From NCBI GenBank assembly GCA_051746205.1, contig JBNJEU010000005.1, forward strand, positions 1,344-65,343: a DNA stretch of 64,000 bases, written 5' to 3'. Below the pieces are notes generated by a model. That model was not told where the DNA came from and did no database searches. It worked only from the letters and a program-made list of their open reading frames with translations. Every line of letters begins with the position of its first letter. Positions within the stretch are counted from its first letter, which is position 1. The DNA comes from Pseudomonadota bacterium (GTDB lineage: Bacteria > Pseudomonadota > Gammaproteobacteria > Thiohalospirales > Thiohalospiraceae). Positions 16,521 to 42,196 of this stretch are shown piece after piece. Made by a program: the position numbers and the translations under genes.

Positions 16521-19500
16521 ATGCGCCTGAGCACGATCAAACTGGCCGGATTCAAGTCCTTCGTGGATCCCACTTCCATCCCCATGCCCAGTCAACTGGT
16601 CGGGGTCGTGGGGCCCAACGGCTGCGGCAAGTCCAACGTCATCGACGCCGTGCGCTGGGTGATGGGGGAGTCGTCGGCGCGCCATCTGCGCGGCGAGGCC
16701 ATGGCCGACGTCATCTTCAACGGCTCGTCGTCGCGCAAGCCGGTGGGCCAGGCCTCGGTGGAGCTGGTCTTCGACAACAGCGACGGCGGTGCCGGCGGCC
16801 AGTACGCCCACTACAACGAGATCGCCGTGCGCCGTGTGGTGACCCGCGACGGGCAGTCCAACTACTACCTCAACGGCACCCGCTGCCGCCGCCGCGACAT
16901 TACCGACATCTTCCTCGGCACCGGCCTCGGTCCGCGCTCCTACGCCATCATCCAGCAGAATACCGTCTCGCGCCTTATCGAGGCGCGTCCCGAGGAGATG
17001 CGGACCTTCCTGGAGGAGGCCGCCGGCATCTCCAAGTACAAGGAGCGTCGCCGCGAGACCGAGAACCGCATCCGCCACACCCGCGAGAACATGGAGCGGC
17101 TGGAGGACCTGCGCGAGGAACTGGACCGCCAGCTTGCCCACCTCCAGCGCCAGGCCAAGACCGCCGAGCGCTACAAGGAACTCAAGGCGCGCGAGCGCGA
17201 GCTGCGCGGCCAGCTCCAGGTGATCCGCTGGCGGGTACTGGACGACGAGTGCGCCGAGCACGACCGCGCCGTGGGCGAGAAGGAGACGGAAATGGAGGCC
17301 GAGGTCGCGCGCCAGCGCCACCTGGAGGCGGAACTGGAGACGCGCCGCGGCGAGCAGGGCGAGGCAGCCGACGCCTTCTCCGAGATCCAGGGGCGCTACT
17401 ACGCCGTGGGCTCCGACATCGCGCGGCTGGAGGAGGCCATCCAGCACGCCCGCGAGCGGCGCGAGCAGCAGGAGCGCGACCTGGCCCAGCTCGACACCGC
17501 CTGGGAGGAGGCCGAGGCCCATCTGGGCCAGGATCGCGAGCGTCTGGAGACCACCGACGCCGCCCTGGCCGAGGGCGAGCCCGAACTCGAACAGCTGGAG
17601 GCCGCCGAGGCCGAGGCCCGCGAGGCGGTCACCGAGGCCGAGGAGGCGTTGCAAACATGGCAGACGGAGTGGGAGGCGGTCACTGCCGATCTCGCCGAAC
17701 CGACCCGCACCGCCGACGTGGCGCGCAACACCCTGCACAATCTGGAACGCAACGCCGATGAGGGTCTGCGTCGGCAGGAGCGCCTGGAGGCAGAACAGCG
17801 GGAGCTGGACACCACCGCGCTCGACGAGGAATTGCATACCATCGCCACCGAACGGGCCGAGGCCGAGGCCGGTCTGACGGACCTGCAAAAGGCGCTGGAG
17901 ACCGCTCAGGGAGAGCTGGAGAGCCAGCGCGAAGGCAATCGAGCGGCGGCCCGGGTGCTGGACGAACAGCGCCAGCAATTGCAGCAGTCCCGGGGCCGGC
18001 ACGCCTCGCTGGAGGCGCTGCAGCAGGCCGCGCTGGGCAAGGACAATGGCGCCGTCTCCCAGTGGCTGGAACGTCAGGGCCTCGGCTCGGCCCGGCGCCT
18101 GGCCGAGGGGCTCGACGTGGAGGCCGGCTGGGGACCGGCGGTGGAGGCCGTGCTGGGAGACAGCCTGGAGGCGGTCTGTGTCGACGGTCTCGATCCCCTG
18201 GCCCGAGCGGTCACCGATCTGACCGAGGGCGGCGTGACCCTGCTGGACACGGGCGGCTCCGGTCGCGATGCGGGCCCCGACGGCGCGACCCTGGCCGGGA
18301 AGGTCCATGCCCCGTGGGACGTCGCCCCGCTGCTGGCGGGGGTGCGGGTGGCCGACGATCTGGCGGCGGCCCTGGCCCTGCGCGAGCAGCTCACCCCGGG
18401 CGAGAGCGTGGTCACCCGCGACGGTCTCTGGCTCGGTCCCAACTGGCTGCGAGTGCGCCGGGACCAGGATGAACGCGGCGGCGTCCTCGAGCGCGAGGAG
18501 GCCCTGCGCGAGGTGGCCGCGACGATGGAGCGGCTGGAAGAGCAGCTGGCCAGCGGCGACGAGGCGCTGGAGGCCGGCCGCCACCGCGAGAGCGAGCTGG
18601 AGCAGGAACGCGACCGTCTGCAGAGCGCGAGCAACGAACAGCACCGCCGGGTCAGCGAACTGCGCAGTCGCCAGCAGACCCGGCAGTCACGGCTGGAACA
18701 GCTGCGCAGCCGCGCTGAACAGATCGAGCAGGAGATCGGTGAACGGATTGCCGAACGCGAGGCCAACGCCGAGGAGCAGGAGGCGGTGCGCGAACAGCTC
18801 AACGAGGCGCTGGAGCGCAGCGAGGTGCTGGCTGCCCGTCGCGACGCTCTGGCCGAGCGGCGTGAACCGCTGCAGCGGGCGGTGGAAGAGGCGCGCCAGC
18901 GTCATCGCGAGGCCGGCGAGGCGGTGAATCGGCAGCGACTCCACCTGCAGGGACTGCGCACCGAACGCGCCTCCATCCAGCAGGCCCTGGAGCGGCTGGA
19001 GGGTCAGCGGCAACAGTTTTCGGAGCGCCGCGATGAGCTCCAGCGGGCACTGGCCGAGGAGGACGACCCGGTGGAACATCGCCAGGCCGAACTGGACCGG
19101 CTACTGACCCAGCGCCAGGAGGTCGAGGCGGCCATGGTCGCGGCTCGCGAACGCAGCGAGGCGGTGGACCAGGCCATCCGCGAACTCTCGCAACAGCGCA
19201 CCGAGGCGGAGCAGAACGCCACGCGCCTGCGCGAGGAGGTGGAGCGCGCCCGCATGAGCGCCCAGGAGCTGCGGGTCCGCCGGGAATCCCTGCTCGAACA
19301 GATCCAGGAAGCCGGCCACGACCGCGATGCCCTGCTGGCGGATCTGCCGGAGGACGCCGACGAGGCCCGGTGGCAGCAGAGCCTCCAGGAGGTGGAAACG
19401 GCCATCTCGCGGCTGGGATCCATCAACCTGGCCGCCATCGACGAATACGAGCAGCAGTCGGAGCGCAAGGTCTATCTGGATCAGCAGCGCGAGGATCTGG

Positions 19501-24326: not shown

Positions 24327-25234
24327 CCCTCTTTGACCTGGTGCTGGTGGCGGGTATCGCCCTGGTGGCCTGGGTCACTCTGATCGATTGCCGACGCTTC
24401 CGGGTCGTTGTGCTCTATGTGGTCTTCGGCCTGCTGCTGGCCATCGCCTGGGCGCGGCTGGGAGCGGTGGATCTGGCGCTGGCGGAGGCAGCCATCGGTG
24501 CCGGCATCACGGGTGCATTGTTCATGGCGGCCCTGGCGCGGGTACGACGTGCCGGCGGGACGCAGGCAGTGGCGCCGACGGGGTCTCTGCTCTGGGCTGC
24601 CGGCGTTGCGTTGCTCGCCGCCGGAGCCGTGGTCTGGGTCCTTGCCGACTGGCCGGTTCCGGCGTGGCCGCCGGTGGCGAAGCACCTTGACAACAGCGGT
24701 GTCGACCACTCGGTGACCGCCGTTCTGCTTGCCTTCCGCGCCTGGGATACTCTGCTGGAGATCGCCGTGCTGGTGGCCGCCGGCTTCGCCATTCATGCTT
24801 CCGGACCGGCACCGGCGCCACCAGGCCATGAAAGCGGCGCCTTGCAGCTGGCCCTGTTGCGGATCGTGAATCCCTTTCTGGTGGTGCTGGCCGTCTATCT
24901 GCTGTGGAAGGGCGGGCACGCCCCGGGGGGCGCCTTCCAGGCCGGGGCGATGCTGGCCGCCGCCGGAATCTTTCACCACCTCAGCCACTTCCCCGCGCCA
25001 CTCGACCGGCCGTCTCCGTGGCAGCGACCCGCTGCGGTCGTCGCCCTGCTGCTGTTCGCGTTCGCCGGTGCGGCGACCCTGGGCACGGTCCCGCTGGCGT
25101 GGCCCGAGGGCTGGGCCAAAGTGTGGATCCTCACCATCGAGGCGGCGGCCACCCTGTCCATCGGTCTGCTGCTGACCCAGCTGTTTGTCGGAGGACGTCC
25201 CCGTTCGCCCGGGGACAATGAGGAGAAAACATGA
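24314..25234 (+). CDS. mnhB: DUF4040 + MnhB fusion subunit
   Basis: AVDLALAEAAIGAG (DUF4040), VTAVLLAFRAWDTLLE and HAPGGAFQAG (MnhB). Confidence 0.85.
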   Translation: MAALTLFDLVLVAGIALVAWVTLIDCRRFRVVVLYVVFGLLLAIAWARLGAVDLALAEAAIGAGITGALFMAALARVRRAGGTQAVAPTGSLLWAAGVALLAAGAVVWVLADWPVPAWPPVAKHLDNSGVDHSVTAVLLAFRAWDTLLEIAVLVAAGFAIHASGPAPAPPGHESGALQLALLRIVNPFLVVLAVYLLWKGGHAPGGAFQAGAMLAAAGIFHHLSHFPAPLDRPSPWQRPAAVVALLLFAFAGAATLGTVPLAWPEGWAKVWILTIEAAATLSIGLLLTQLFVGGRPRSPGDNEEKT

Positions 25235-36156: not shown

Positions 36157-36762
36157 TCAGTCGGGCGATTCGAAAACCGGACCGCCCACCGTGTGGCTGG
36201 TATAGCGCTCCAGGCGCGCCCGTTCCAGCGGGAAATCCGGTGGCAGACCGGCCTTCCGGCGCAACTGGCGCAGAAACTCCGCCGGGTCCGGCAGGCTCTC
36301 CCAGACCGCCGGCAGGAAGGTGCCCCGGTGGCCGTCGGCCTCGAGCACCAGGCCGTCCTCGCCGGGGCGGAGCTTCGACAGCAGATCCGCCTCCGAGGCG
36401 AAGGCCAGCGGTTCCGGCGGCGTCAGCACGGCCACCGAGACATCGAGCCCCTCGAGTTCATCCGGCGTGACCGGCGGAAAGCGCGGGTCCCGGGCGGCGG
36501 CCGCGGCGGCGTTGTGAATCACATCGGCCGCGAGCGGCCGCACCGCCTCCAGTGAACCGATGCAGCCCCGCAGTCCGTCCGCCGCTTCCCCGGCTTGTCG
36601 CTGTTTCAGGGTGACGAAGCTCGCCCCGGGGCGAGCGAGTTCGTCCGGCTCCCGAGGGGGTTCCGGCAGCGGCTCGGCGCGAGCGGTGGCGATCACACCG
36701 GCCCGTGCCAGTGCGAGCAGCGCTTCGCGGGCGGCCGGGGAAGGGCCTTCGGACGCGTTCAT
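36157..36762 (-). CDS. amrA: AmmeMemoRadiSam system protein A (AMMECR1 domain)
   Basis: ASFVTL, LRGCIGS, AARDPRFPPV and GTFLPAVWE motifs. Confidence 0.92.
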   Translation of the reverse strand: MNASEGPSPAAREALLALARAGVIATARAEPLPEPPREPDELARPGASFVTLKQRQAGEAADGLRGCIGSLEAVRPLAADVIHNAAAAAARDPRFPPVTPDELEGLDVSVAVLTPPEPLAFASEADLLSKLRPGEDGLVLEADGHRGTFLPAVWESLPDPAEFLRQLRRKAGLPPDFPLERARLERYTSHTVGGPVFESPD

Positions 36763-37574
36763 GCCGCCACCTCGGAGGTGCCCGGTTCGATGAAGGCGTA
36801 GGCCCCGTAGCCGACCACCTGTTCCGGGCTCCCGGCGGTGTCCGCCGAGGTGCGCCGATCCAGGGTCTTCGCGACCAGGCCGCGTCGACGGGCCACGGTC
36901 AGCAGGCCGTTGAGGGGGGTGCGGCCACAGGCGTTGTCGAAGCCGATGGCGTCGGGGCGCAGCTCCTCGATGGCGCGGGAGGTCGCGCCGTCCAGTTGCC
37001 GGGCGGTGGACTCGTCGTGGAAGTGCGAGAGGTCGGAACTGATCACCACCAGCGTCTCCGGTCCGCCCCACAGGCGGTCGAGGACCTCGGCCACCTCGTC
37101 CGGTTCGGCCTCGCCGACCACCAGCGGCACGATCCGGAACTCGCCGAGGACGCGCTGGAGGAACGGCAACTGGACTTCGAGACTGTGTTCCCGGGCGTGG
37201 GCGACGGCCAGGTTGCCCACCTGGGGCAGGTCGGCGATGGCGGCGATGCCGTCGGTGTCCACGGGGATGTCGCCCAGCGGCGTGCGCAGGGCGTCGACAT
37301 CCGGCAGCGCGAGGCCGCGGAAGGGGACGCGGTGCGCCGGCCCCAGCAGTATGACCCGGCGGATCGATTCGCGCCGGGGGGCCACGGCGCGGTAGACGCT
37401 GGCGGCCACCGGGCCGGAATAGGGGTAACCGGCGTGCGGGGCGACGATGGCCTTGGGTGCCGGGCCTTCGCCGGGCGCCGCCGCGGCCAGATAGTCGTCC
37501 ACCATCCGGCCGAGGGTGCCGGCGTCGGCGGGGTAGAACATGCCCGCCACGGCGGGCTGGCGGATCGCGGTCAC
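36759..37574 (-). CDS. amrB: AmmeMemoRadiSam system protein B (MEMO1 family)
   Basis: IRQPAVAGMFYP, APHAGYPYSG, EHSLEVQLPFLQ, SSDLSH and VVGY motifs. Confidence 0.93.
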   Translation of the reverse strand: MTAIRQPAVAGMFYPADAGTLGRMVDDYLAAAAPGEGPAPKAIVAPHAGYPYSGPVAASVYRAVAPRRESIRRVILLGPAHRVPFRGLALPDVDALRTPLGDIPVDTDGIAAIADLPQVGNLAVAHAREHSLEVQLPFLQRVLGEFRIVPLVVGEAEPDEVAEVLDRLWGGPETLVVISSDLSHFHDESTARQLDGATSRAIEELRPDAIGFDNACGRTPLNGLLTVARRRGLVAKTLDRRTSADTAGSPEQVVGYGAYAFIEPGTSEVAA

Positions 37575-37631
37575 TGTCGTGCTCCCGGACCCCGACGGGA
37601 TCCCATGACGGTCTGAATGATCTATACCTCC

Positions 37632-37660
37632 AATGTAGGATCGAACATGCGACATTCCAA
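37632..37660 (-). promoter_or_regulatory. Putative sigma-70 promoter for amrB-amrA abutting the inverted repeat
   Basis: Minus strand TTGGAA-N17-TACATT; its -35 shares base 37660 with the repeat arm. Confidence 0.5.
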
Positions 37661-37840
37661 GCCGTTCGAGCCCGGGTGGGTGCGGCGGCGCGGGGGATCG
37701 GGTGGGAGGCTCGATCCGGGGGCGTCAGCGGCCATGGATGGCCGCTGTCGAGCTTACATGGATGTATTCATGGCGTCCCCCGGGTCGACGCCCCCCACCC
37801 GATCCCCCGCGCCGCCGCACCCACCCGGGCTCGAACGGCT
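37660..37840. repeat. 181-bp long inverted-repeat element with perfect 47-bp arms
   Basis: 37660-37706 (AGCCGTTCGAGCCCGGGTGGGTGCGGCGGCGCGGGGGATCGGGTGGG) is the exact reverse complement of 37794-37840. Imperfect pairing continues inward for about 20 bp. Confidence 0.95.
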
Positions 37841-37862
37841 GAACAGACCTCGGAGGATGCTG

Positions 37863-38996
37863 ATGACCGACCAGCCCATTCGAACGCCCGGCGAGAGTGA
37901 CCGGCCCGACATCGTGCCGACGCAGTACTGGCATGTGCTCGACGACGGTCGAGTGCAGTGCGATCTCTGTCCACGCTTCTGCAAGTTGAAGGAGGGGCAG
38001 CGCGGCCTCTGCTTCGTGCGCGGCAACGATGGTGGTCAGGTGGTGCTGGCCACCTACGGTCGATCCAGCGGCTTCTGCATCGACCCCATCGAGAAGAAGC
38101 CGCTGAATCACTTTCTGCCCGGGTCGCCGGTGCTGTCGTTCGGGACCGCCGGCTGCAATCTGGCCTGCAAGTACTGCCAGAACTGGGACATGACCAAGGC
38201 GCGTGAGACCGATATCCTGGCCGACTACGCCTCGCCGGAAACGGTGGCACGCACCGCCGAGGCGTATGGTTGTCGGAGCATCGCCTACACTTACAACGAC
38301 CCGATCATCTTCCACGAGTACGCCATCGACATCGCGAAGGCGTGCCGGGAGCGTGGCATCCGCTCGGTGGCGGTGACCTCCGGCTACGTCTCTCCGGAAC
38401 CTCGGGCCGAGTTCTATCGGTACATGGACGCCGCCAACATCGACCTGAAGGCGTTCAGCGAAGAGTTCTATCGCACGCTCACCGGCGGCGAGCTGCAGCC
38501 GGTTCTCGATACCATCCGCTATATTTATCACGAGACCGATGTCTGGCTGGAGCTGACGACCCTGGTCATCCCCGGTCACAACGACAGCGCCGACGAGATC
38601 GCCGAACTCAGCGCCTGGGTGCGTGATGAACTGGGTCCCGAGGTGCCGCTGCACTTTACCGCCTTCCATCCCGACTGGAAGATGACCGATACACCGCCGA
38701 CGCCGCTGGCGACCCTGCGCGACGCTCGCGCCATTGCCCGGGAAGCGGGGTTGCACCATGTCTATCTCGGCAACGTGCTCGAACCGGAGGGCGGGGTGAC
38801 GCGGTGCCACGCCTGTGGTGCCGAGGTCATCCGGCGCGACGGCTATACCCTGACCCACTGGGGGCTGGAGAGCGGTGGTCGTTGTGCCCAGTGCGGGGCG
38901 GTGGTGTCCGGGGTGTTCGAGGCGGAGCCCGGCGACTGGGGGAGTCGGCGGCAACCTGTGCGCCTCGCCTCGGAAAAAGGGGACAGTCCCGTTTAA
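37863..38996 (+). CDS. amrS: AmmeMemoRadiSam system radical SAM enzyme
   Basis: [33 protein letters not shown] (CxxxCxxC) and LHFTAFHP motifs. Confidence 0.93.
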
Positions 38997-40999: not shown

Positions 41000-42196
41000 T
41001 CAAAGTGTCTCGATGAAGGCGCGGACGCGGTGGGCGGCCTCGACGCAGCGTTCAGTCTCGGCCACCAGCGCCAGGCGCACGCGGTTCTCGCCGGGGTTGG
41101 GGCCGGCGTCGAGGCCGTGGCGTTCGCGGCCCAGATAACGGCCGGGCAGGACGGTGACGTGCTGCTCGGCGAACAGTCGGCGGGCGAATTCGGTATCGTC
41201 GATGGGCGTGCGCGGCCAGAGGTAGAAACCGGCGTCGGGGCGCCGCACCTCGAGCACCGGCTCCAGGATCGGGAGCACGGCGTCGAAACGCGCCTGGTAG
41301 TCGGCGCGGTTGGCGGCGACGTGCCCCTCGTCGTTCCAGGCGGCGATGCTGGCGGCCTGCACCGGCGGCCCCAGGGCGCAGCCGTGGTAGGTGCGGTAGC
41401 GCAGGAAGGCGTTCAGCACCTCGGCGTCGCCGGCGACGAAACCGGAGCGCAGCCCCGGCAGGTTGGAGCGCTTGGACAGGCTGTGGAAGACCACGCAGCG
41501 GCGGAAATCGGTGTTGCCGGCGGCGGCGGCCGCCCCCAGCAGCCCCTCCGGCGCCGGCCCGTCGGCGGCGTATATCTCGGCGTAGCACTCGTCGCTGGCG
41601 ATGATGAAGTCGTGGCGCTCGGCGCGCTCCAGCAGTCGGGTCAGTTGCTCGCGGTCGAGCACCGCGCCGGTGGGGTTGCCCGGGGTGCAGATGTAGAGCA
41701 GCTGGCAGCGGTCCCAGACGGCATCGGGCACGGCGTCGAAGTCGGGTCGGCCGTCCTCGCCCAGCGGCAGGTAGCCCGGCTCGGCCCCGGCCAGCAGCGC
41801 AGCACCCTCGTAGATCTGATAGAACGGATTGGGCAGCAGCACCAGCGGCCGGGCGTGGCGGTCCACCACCGCCTGGGCGAGGGCGAAGAGCGCCTCGCGG
41901 GTTCCGGCCACCGGCAGGCAGTGGCGTTCCGGATCGACGGCGTCGGCGGGCAGCCCGAAACGGCGCGTCAGCCAGCCCGCGATGGCCTGGCGTAGCGCAG
42001 GCTCGCCCCGGGTGGTGGGGTAGCGCGCCAGCATCTCCAGGTGCCCGGCGAGGGCCTCGCGGACGAACGCCGGGGCCGGGTTGCGCGGCTCGCCGATGGA
42101 GAGCGGGATCGGGTCCGGTTCCCCGGGCGGCTCGCCGAGCAGGGTCGCCAGCTTCTCGAACGGGTAGGGATGGAGGTGGTCGAGATCGGGGTTCAT
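41000..42196 (-). CDS. dapC: Succinyldiaminopimelate transaminase
   Basis: [26 protein letters not shown] and [14 protein letters not shown] (PLP Lys). Confidence 0.93.

Follow-up and report, generated by a model that had tools for sequence, protein, structure and literature searches.

The element upstream of amrS

The window, that is, the whole stretch of 64,000 nucleotides analysed here, carries between a MEMO-like gene and the divergently oriented amrS gene a long inverted repeat, at whose apex lie two short hairpins with GGA in their loops. The features of this intergenic region, in window positions, are as follows.

36759–37574, minus strand: MEMO-like gene, divergent neighbour, with its start at 37574
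37575–37659, no strand assigned: A+T-richer spacer from the start of the MEMO-like gene to the element
37660–37840, no strand assigned: whole palindromic repeat element, 181 nt (inverted repeat, folds of both strands, family copies)
37660–37724, plus strand: G-rich 65-nt arm on the 5' side of the basal stem (arm alignment with 63 pairs; conservation profile)
37725–37773, plus strand: asymmetric conserved core, 49 nt, T–hairpin 1–TCGAGCT–hairpin 2–TTCATGG (alignments A1 and A2; purifying selection at shared loci)
37726–37747, plus strand: hairpin 1, 9-bp stem, TGGA loop, CANGGANG at 37733–37740 (fold; 99% paired, compensatory stem variants)
37755–37766, plus strand: hairpin 2, UAC/GUA stem, displaying A-N-GGA-N (fold; pair counts)
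37774–37840, plus strand: C-rich 67-nt arm on the 3' side of the basal stem (arm alignment, pair counts)
37852–37856, plus strand: amrS Shine-Dalgarno sequence GGAGG, 11 nt 3' of the element
37857–38996, plus strand: amrS (AmmeMemoRadiSam radical SAM enzyme), neighbour, outside the element

Hairpin 1 reads CAGCGGCCA-TGGA-TGGCCGCTG (37726–37747) and hairpin 2 reads TACA-TGGA-TGTA (37755–37766), positions and sequences that agree with those given in an earlier sequence-only reading of the locus. As that reading also had it, the same loop motif, CATGGATG, occurs twice with an offset of 24 nt (37733–37740 and 37757–37764); in hairpin 2 it is an instance of CANGGANG at 37757–37764, contained in ACATGGATGT at 37756–37765. 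The placement of both hairpins at the apex of a long stem is likewise borne out by the near-perfect palindrome of 181 nt, whose arms extend over 51 nt at 98% complementarity when no bulge is allowed, and over 65 and 67 nt with 63 pairs when one bulged T is accepted (anchored arm alignment). A bulged T beside the core, on the 3' arm, recurs in most copies of the family described below, and the 5' arm of the window element is copy-specific outside its inner ~17 nt, as judged by comparison of arms. The minimum free energy of the palindrome is -186 kcal/mol, compared with -108 ± 5 kcal/mol in shuffled sequences (z = -16), and is similar for each strand. Neither a sigma-70 consensus nor a U-tract terminator was found at 37450–37950; the spacer at 37575–37659 is presumably the site of divergent promoters. 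Two in-frame ATG codons are present at the beginning of amrS (37857 and 37863), with GGAGG directly against the first of them, and because of this abutment, and because relatives start at ATGACCGAC, translation more likely begins at 37863.

A dispersed repeat family of one genus

The hairpin repeat is present once in the 64-kb window, and it belongs to a family dispersed over the whole genome. In the assembly from which the window comes (G000; 2.06 Mb, 67% G+C, 125 contigs), a search with the element returned 30 matches, chiefly to its centre, and a more sensitive BLAST search with the 87-nt centre gave 58 core matches, several of them at contig ends. A covariance model (R1), built from 46 copies (alignment A1), recognises 55 copies in this assembly and 43, 20, 78, and 28 in four congeners; outside the genus, it finds 0–2 in each of 12 genomes from other genera of the same taxonomic family, and 3 matches in 24 other genomes of the class. 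Some copies are arranged as divergent doublets ~170–215 nt apart, as on contigs C10 (24755 on the minus strand and 24969 on the plus strand, spanning 24755–25053) and C2 (18234 minus and 18442 plus, spanning 18234–18527) of G000, and in locus L166 of the congener G001 (1501 minus and 1672 plus, spanning 1501–1759).

The family core is ~47–49 nt long and asymmetric (T–hairpin 1–TCGAGCC–hairpin 2–TTCACGG), and is bordered on each side by ~17 nt of semi-conserved stem. Beyond this border, the outer arms of the G000 copies are copy-specific, with a median of 49 bp and ~95% of the aligned positions complementary, and the 5' arm is G-rich whichever strand the copy lies on. In the congeners G001 and G003, on the other hand, the main subfamily has conserved 32-nt arms and a conserved outer stem, forming a ~190-nt unit that recurs from locus to locus. 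Since this subfamily shares its arms between loci, the arms must be counted as part of the repeat unit. The homogeneous ~190-nt subfamily looks like a young one, the product of a recent burst, and the diverse arms of G000 look like those of older, diverged copies. Two further observations concern relatives of G000. In the main G001/G003 subfamily (loci L145–L183), the 5' side, unlike the 3' side, contains a conserved stretch that is unpaired, C(C/T)CGAAAAGGCC(C/T)GGCGG, and the inner stem is separated from the outer one by an asymmetric internal loop of 17 nt versus 5 nt. In G016, which belongs to a neighbouring genus (contig C195; L029:1501–1588 and 2721–2808; local G+C ~51%), two repeat copies in direct orientation have identical inner arms and enclose, in a cassette-like arrangement, a RelE/ParE-like toxin and Phd/YefM-like antitoxin pair identified by eye from the translations.

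Of 111 copies taken from 7 genomes, 107 have both loops in the form C-A-N-G-G-A-N-G, with variation at the N positions alone and each of the six fixed positions conserved at 98% or above; this recurrence is well beyond chance. The two GGA triplets stand 23 nt apart in 100 of these copies and 24 nt apart in the remaining 7, and in hairpin 2 the octamer is preceded by A and followed by U, i.e., ACANGGANGU, in ~90% of the copies. The position after A is G in most copies, so that the loops are chiefly AGGGAY. Considering A-N-GGA-N, the second position is Y in 29/107 copies for hairpin 1 and 38/107 for hairpin 2, and the last position is Y in 107/107 and 93/107, respectively. The loops are constant on stems that are not: about a dozen perfectly complementary variants of the hairpin 1 stem were found (for example CGGCCG/CGGCCG, CGGCAG/CTGCCG, and CGACGG/CCGTCG), together with four of the hairpin 2 stem (TAC/GTA, GAC/GTC, CAC/GTG, and CCC/GGG). 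Among the 46 aligned copies, the paired fraction is 99% for hairpin 1 and 81% for hairpin 2, and 92% of the cells of the basal stem are paired, compared with 35–48% when the partners are slid against each other; 17 of the first 20 basal pairs show changes on both sides. Used as a test of which strand acts as RNA, counts of G-U against A-C mismatches are 31 versus 16 in the basal stems of alignments A1 and A2 and 28 versus 15 over the complete arms of copies from G000; since these copies are not independent and the hairpin counts are confounded by a loop position, the excess is no firm indication of the strand.

Gene context, orientation, and the supposed link to amrS

The gene contexts given here rest on a home-made codon log-likelihood gene caller (1996 genes, 92% coding). 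The flanking genes of the 41 resolved G000 copies are convergent in 19 cases, tandem in 18, and divergent in 4, and 37 of the 41 copies adjoin at least one gene 3' end. In a sample of 26 copies of G001, the corresponding contexts are 4 convergent, 12 tandem, and 10 divergent. No bias of orientation relative to the neighbouring genes was seen in the tandem contexts of three genomes, in which 16 copies have the GGA strand in the sense direction and 21 in the antisense direction, nor is there any relaxation of constraint in the antisense copies, the motifs being equally intact in both. Orientation also flips between species, and this frequent flipping weakens orientation as a test of RNA function. 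A weak trend in the same three genomes places gene starts nearer on the 3' side of the GGA strand (13/37 within 65 nt, versus 4/38 on the 5' side), with an estimated Fisher p of ~0.01 that becomes weaker once the asymmetry of the element itself is allowed for.

The sequence-only reading had proposed that the element might act as a Csr-responsive leader of amrS, whose Shine-Dalgarno sequence also contains GGA; in the model considered here, CsrA would link the apical hairpins to this GGA. The local arrangement is compatible with this proposal, as the GGA strand is the sense strand of amrS, the element ends 11 nt before GGAGG, and the trend in gene starts just mentioned goes in the same direction. 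However, no element lies upstream of amrS in the congeners G001, G002, and G003, nor in the neighbouring-genus genomes G006 and G016, and the upstream spacer of amrS measures ~100–115 nt in three congeners versus 282 nt in the window (in the closest relative, G004, the contig breaks off within amrS). The ~55 other copies of G000 adjoin unrelated genes, and an A-form stem of 63 pairs would put the apex at an estimated ~18 nm from the Shine-Dalgarno sequence, a span unlikely to be bridged by a single CsrA dimer. A leader evolved for amrS is thus very improbable and was rejected on account of the five amrS loci without element; the window copy is one member of a dispersed repeat, its link with amrS is incidental, and any effect on this gene would be a by-product of the place where this copy was inserted. 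Conservation of the two loops, which had been proposed as a check at orthologous loci, is found in more than 100 copies with covarying stems, but not in association with amrS, whose other loci examined are without the element.

Evolution at shared loci

The closest relative, G004, allowed 16 of its loci to be compared with G000, mostly at 82–90% nucleotide identity. At eight loci that the two genomes share, only 8 of 346 sites differ at the non-N positions of the core (2.3%), compared with 11 of 32 at the four N positions (34%; Fisher p = 1e-8). The flanks, chiefly coding, are ~10–18% different in most alignments, and the inner and outer arms are ~20% and ~37% different, respectively. Because the divergence of the non-N positions is far below that of the N positions and of the flanks, the tip is under purifying selection at each locus and is not just young. 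Homogenisation by gene conversion would not account well for this pattern, as the N positions would be homogenised too.

The arms at the shared filled loci change in concert, as in the case of a 3-nt indel mirrored in both arms, and the core is flipped relative to its flanks in 5 of the 8 loci. At five further sites, G004 has a copy where G000 has none; here the unit of insertion or deletion is the entire palindrome, including both arms, and no clear target-site duplication is seen, in flanks too diverged for certainty on this point. The possibility that the arms are pre-existing terminator stems or inverted target duplications was also considered, and was excluded by the empty sites, which are without both arms, and by the arms shared within the G001/G003 subfamily. 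To earlier descriptions of related repeats, the present analysis adds that purifying selection on the tip at shared loci is position-specific, that the arms evolve in concert, and that flipping is frequent.

Relationship to known repeats and RNAs

The closest described counterpart is TwoAYGGAY (RF01731), a motif with two sequential hairpins, AYGGAY loops, and a common basal stem (Weinberg et al., 2010; PMC2864571), for which binding of CsrA has been predicted (PMC4333381). In Pseudomonadota, TwoAYGGAY has been described as multi-copy, with elongated stems, divergent doublets, and a mobile-like variation in copy number, its function being unresolved according to the same report (bioRxiv 10.64898/2026.09.22.753630). 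Divergent doublets, upstream arrays of 5–6-mers, and a 3' pseudoknot have been reported for the TwoAYGGAY elements of Pseudomonas. The present repeat resembles this class in being multi-copy and intergenic, in its variable number among close relatives, in its elongated basal stem, in the proposed binding of CsrA, in the two-hairpin-on-basal-stem fold found in the 46 copies, and in the divergent doublets ~200 nt apart. It differs in the loop position after A, mostly G here and Y in the motif, and in its basal stems of 49–65 bp, which are copy-specific in the window species. The RF01731 model gave no match to the window copy at E <= 10, none to 20 copy-bearing loci or anywhere in G000 at E <= 1, and none above the gathering score of 43 bits across four genomes of the genus; the only two sub-threshold matches in the genus, at 35.6 bits in G003 and 35.9 bits in G001, both coincide with R1 copies on the same strand.

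Another relative is the YPAL (RU-2) repeat of Yersinia, a ~168-bp intergenic palindrome whose sites can be occupied in one sister species and vacant in the other (PMC2229807). Shared features are the intergenic palindromes of ~120–190 nt that are not A+T-rich, the internal inverted repeats, the occurrence of sites that are filled in one sister species but empty in another, and co-transcription with neighbouring genes, which for the present repeat is a prediction; the arms of the present repeat are, in contrast, far more variable. The model of a Yersinia small RNA, Ysr224 (RF02770), scores 21–37 bits in nearly every copy tested, against a gathering score of 70, and in the copies checked the match lies on the strand opposite to the GGA strand. 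At a permissive threshold, Rfam returned spurious miRNA-hairpin matches and this sub-threshold Ysr224, and nothing else. Judged from sequence and predicted fold, the family is probably a divergent relative of the TwoAYGGAY/YPAL type that falls below the Rfam threshold and is distinguished by loops that are mostly AGGGAY and by very long copy-specific stems.

The REP and REPIN sequences are also short, GC-rich intergenic palindromes and genus-specific; they are frequent at gene 3' ends and where two genes converge, and sometimes form inverted pairs, all of which is seen here as well. Nevertheless, in the present repeat the centre is conserved and the arms are variable, the reverse of a REPIN, and neither a cognate transposase nor a conserved GTAG/CGTC tag beside the palindrome was found. 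The Y1/RAYT transposase domain (PF01797) is absent from G000, G002, and G003, and in the main G001/G003 subfamily the minus-strand GTAG is replaced by GTCG, which belongs to a compensatory change of the hairpin 2 stem. An identity with REP/RAYT was rejected on these grounds, and also because the Y1 gene of G004 is accompanied by another repeat. This second repeat family, AAAGGGGAC-N-GTCCCCTTT (AAAGGGGACNGTCCCCTTT), has 31 copies in G000 (for example at C3:73353, C8:11820, and C13:505) and none in the window; in G004, five of its copies flank the only Y1 (RAYT-like) gene of that genome (L185:478–2100, G004:C132), which is absent from G000, and this is a classical REP–RAYT arrangement.

Correia/NEMIS elements of Neisseria are palindromic repeats within mRNAs that form long hairpins cleavable by RNase III and contain a central protein-binding site. 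A long transcribed hairpin, RNase III cleavage, and a central protein site are all predicted for the present repeat (PMC2229807 for the comparison), while Correia elements differ from it by their conserved terminal repeats of 24–26 bp, TA duplications, a central DNA site for IHF, and the lack of GGA loops. Finally, the sponge RNAs CsrB/CsrC and RsmX/Y/Z share with the repeat the presence of GGA in the loops of short hairpins matching the CsrA/RsmE consensus; however, each of them is the product of a single-copy gene that has a GacA/UvrY-dependent promoter of its own, and contains 5–22 GGA sites, whereas the repeat has two sites per unit, a long stem, and dozens of dispersed copies, for which neither a promoter nor a GacA box was found. 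Elsewhere in G000, outside the window, an intergenic region (C4, ~41500–41820; L142:300–620, minus strand) has dense GGA motifs, several of them in predicted hairpin loops (such as CCC-GCAGGA-GGG and CCGGAGA-ACGGAAC-GTCTCCGG), and looks like a candidate sponge RNA of the Rsm/Csr type; it gave no Rfam match and contains no GacA box.

A putative CsrA clamp and its alternatives

The sequence-only reading had called for a csrA gene in the genome, and one is present in G000 (96.8 bits, C1:16646–16801) with a tRNA gene next to it (L144:195–283), csrA followed by a tRNA gene being the usual gammaproteobacterial arrangement. The consensus of CsrA/RsmE sites, derived from SELEX and from RsmE–hcnA studies, is (A/U)CANGGANG(U/A) with the GGA in the loop of a short hairpin, and one CsrA dimer can bridge two sites separated by roughly 10–63 nt. 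At the level of sequence, the loops of the repeat fit this consensus as had been claimed, with GGA in hairpin loops 23–24 nt apart in 107 of 111 copies, and the pattern of fixed and free loop positions is that of the consensus; the two sites of each copy fall within the ~10–63 nt range of one dimer. A two-site platform for CsrA is a reasonable structural inference, and the same inference is already in print for the parent class; the accompanying idea of a minimal Csr sponge likewise accords with the published TwoAYGGAY proposal (PMC4333381; bioRxiv 10.64898/2026.09.22.753630).

The explanation that we favour, with a confidence only somewhat above even, is that the GGA hairpins form the conserved tip of an intergenic palindromic repeat found throughout the genus, a divergent relative of TwoAYGGAY and YPAL, and that this tip clamps a CsrA dimer when the GGA strand is transcribed. 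Part of this explanation is observed directly: the palindrome with its arms is gained or lost as one unit, the arms differ among copies and keep their complementarity by concerted changes, and the asymmetric core switches orientation between species while staying under strong purifying selection in place, except for the four N positions flanking the GGA triplets. When the GGA strand is transcribed, a long rigid RNA stem capped by two CANGGANG hairpins 23–24 nt apart would be produced, which in the window, given an amrS promoter within 37575–37659, would belong to the 5' leader of amrS. The two hairpins would jointly clamp one CsrA dimer, the copies would collectively act as dispersed CsrA tethers or sponges, and small apical RNAs might be released through RNase III cleavage of the stem. 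Several observations count against this explanation. Stems of 49–65 bp are not required by CsrA, and the distribution, with presence or absence between species and a young G001/G003 subfamily, looks like that of mobile DNA. In addition, the lack of orientation bias, the intact antisense motifs, and the 5 of 8 flipped cores make a selection acting solely via read-through mRNAs hard to reconcile with the data, and neither a promoter belonging to the element nor, near any copy, a GacA box within 2 mismatches was found.

That orientation-independent selection is left unexplained by simple read-through CsrA sites keeps alive another explanation, possible but rather doubtful in our view, in which the element acts at the DNA level, its tip being read in single-stranded or cruciform DNA by a transposase, a recombinase, or a host protein, and its likeness to CsrA sites is a coincidence. 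Such an element would resemble REP hairpins with their RAYT, or the ends of IS200/IS605. A cruciform exposes the tip in any orientation, which suits the absence of bias relative to genes and the flipping of the core between species with motifs intact either way round; insertion or deletion of the entire palindrome between sister species, 20 to 78 copies per genome within one genus, and the burst-like ~190-nt subfamily all point the same way. Yet the Y1/RAYT gene expected from this comparison went undetected in the three genomes named above, the sole Y1 gene of G004 is flanked by the AAAGGGGACNGTCCCCTTT repeat, no R1 copy lies near any Y1 gene, and the opposite-strand GTAG is not conserved. Idle copies should moreover decay neutrally, whereas the non-N core at shared loci is ~15 times more conserved than the N positions; as DNA, a hairpin of 3 bp closing 6 nt of loop would be weak; and the exact CANGGANG with only N free, in two different hairpins, would be an improbable coincidence. 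A purely structural role seems improbable: here the palindrome would terminate transcription without a U-tract, stop 3' exonucleases, or mark a site of supercoiling in the manner of REP/BIME, and the tip would be just a spacer that makes so long a palindrome viable. Such a role would be independent of orientation, both strands fold equally well, and the predominance of gene 3' ends in G000, with 19 copies between convergent genes, agrees with it, but the ≥98% conservation of the tip, the covarying hairpins, and the free N positions would be left without explanation, no U-tract is present, and 10 of the 26 sampled G001 copies lie between divergent genes.

Biological significance

Hairpin repeats of the TwoAYGGAY/YPAL type are widespread in Gammaproteobacteria, and this genus offers unusually clean comparative evidence that their tip is functional. 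At shared loci, the six putative CsrA-contact positions of each loop, together with the hairpin stems, surpass the pair of N positions next to each GGA ~15-fold in conservation, and this holds in spite of the freely diverging arms and the flips of the tip. The published CsrA-sponge idea thereby becomes directly testable on a defined 90-nt RNA. For the annotation of the window, the regulatory connection once supposed between Csr and the AmmeMemoRadiSam system falls away. The puzzle posed by the family is a selection that acts on an asymmetric tip, yet independently of the orientation of this tip. One speculative solution, which we regard as unlikely, is that each copy is a mobile palindrome carrying as cargo a high-affinity clamp for one CsrA dimer, which purifying selection maintains at every locus. 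Frequent inversion of the tip, mediated by the palindrome and seen in the 5 of 8 loci that differ between the sister species, would then toggle each locus between GGA and UCC loops on its transcripts, giving reversible CsrA tethers; if true, a genome-wide set of tethers would couple the free CsrA pool to bulk transcription.
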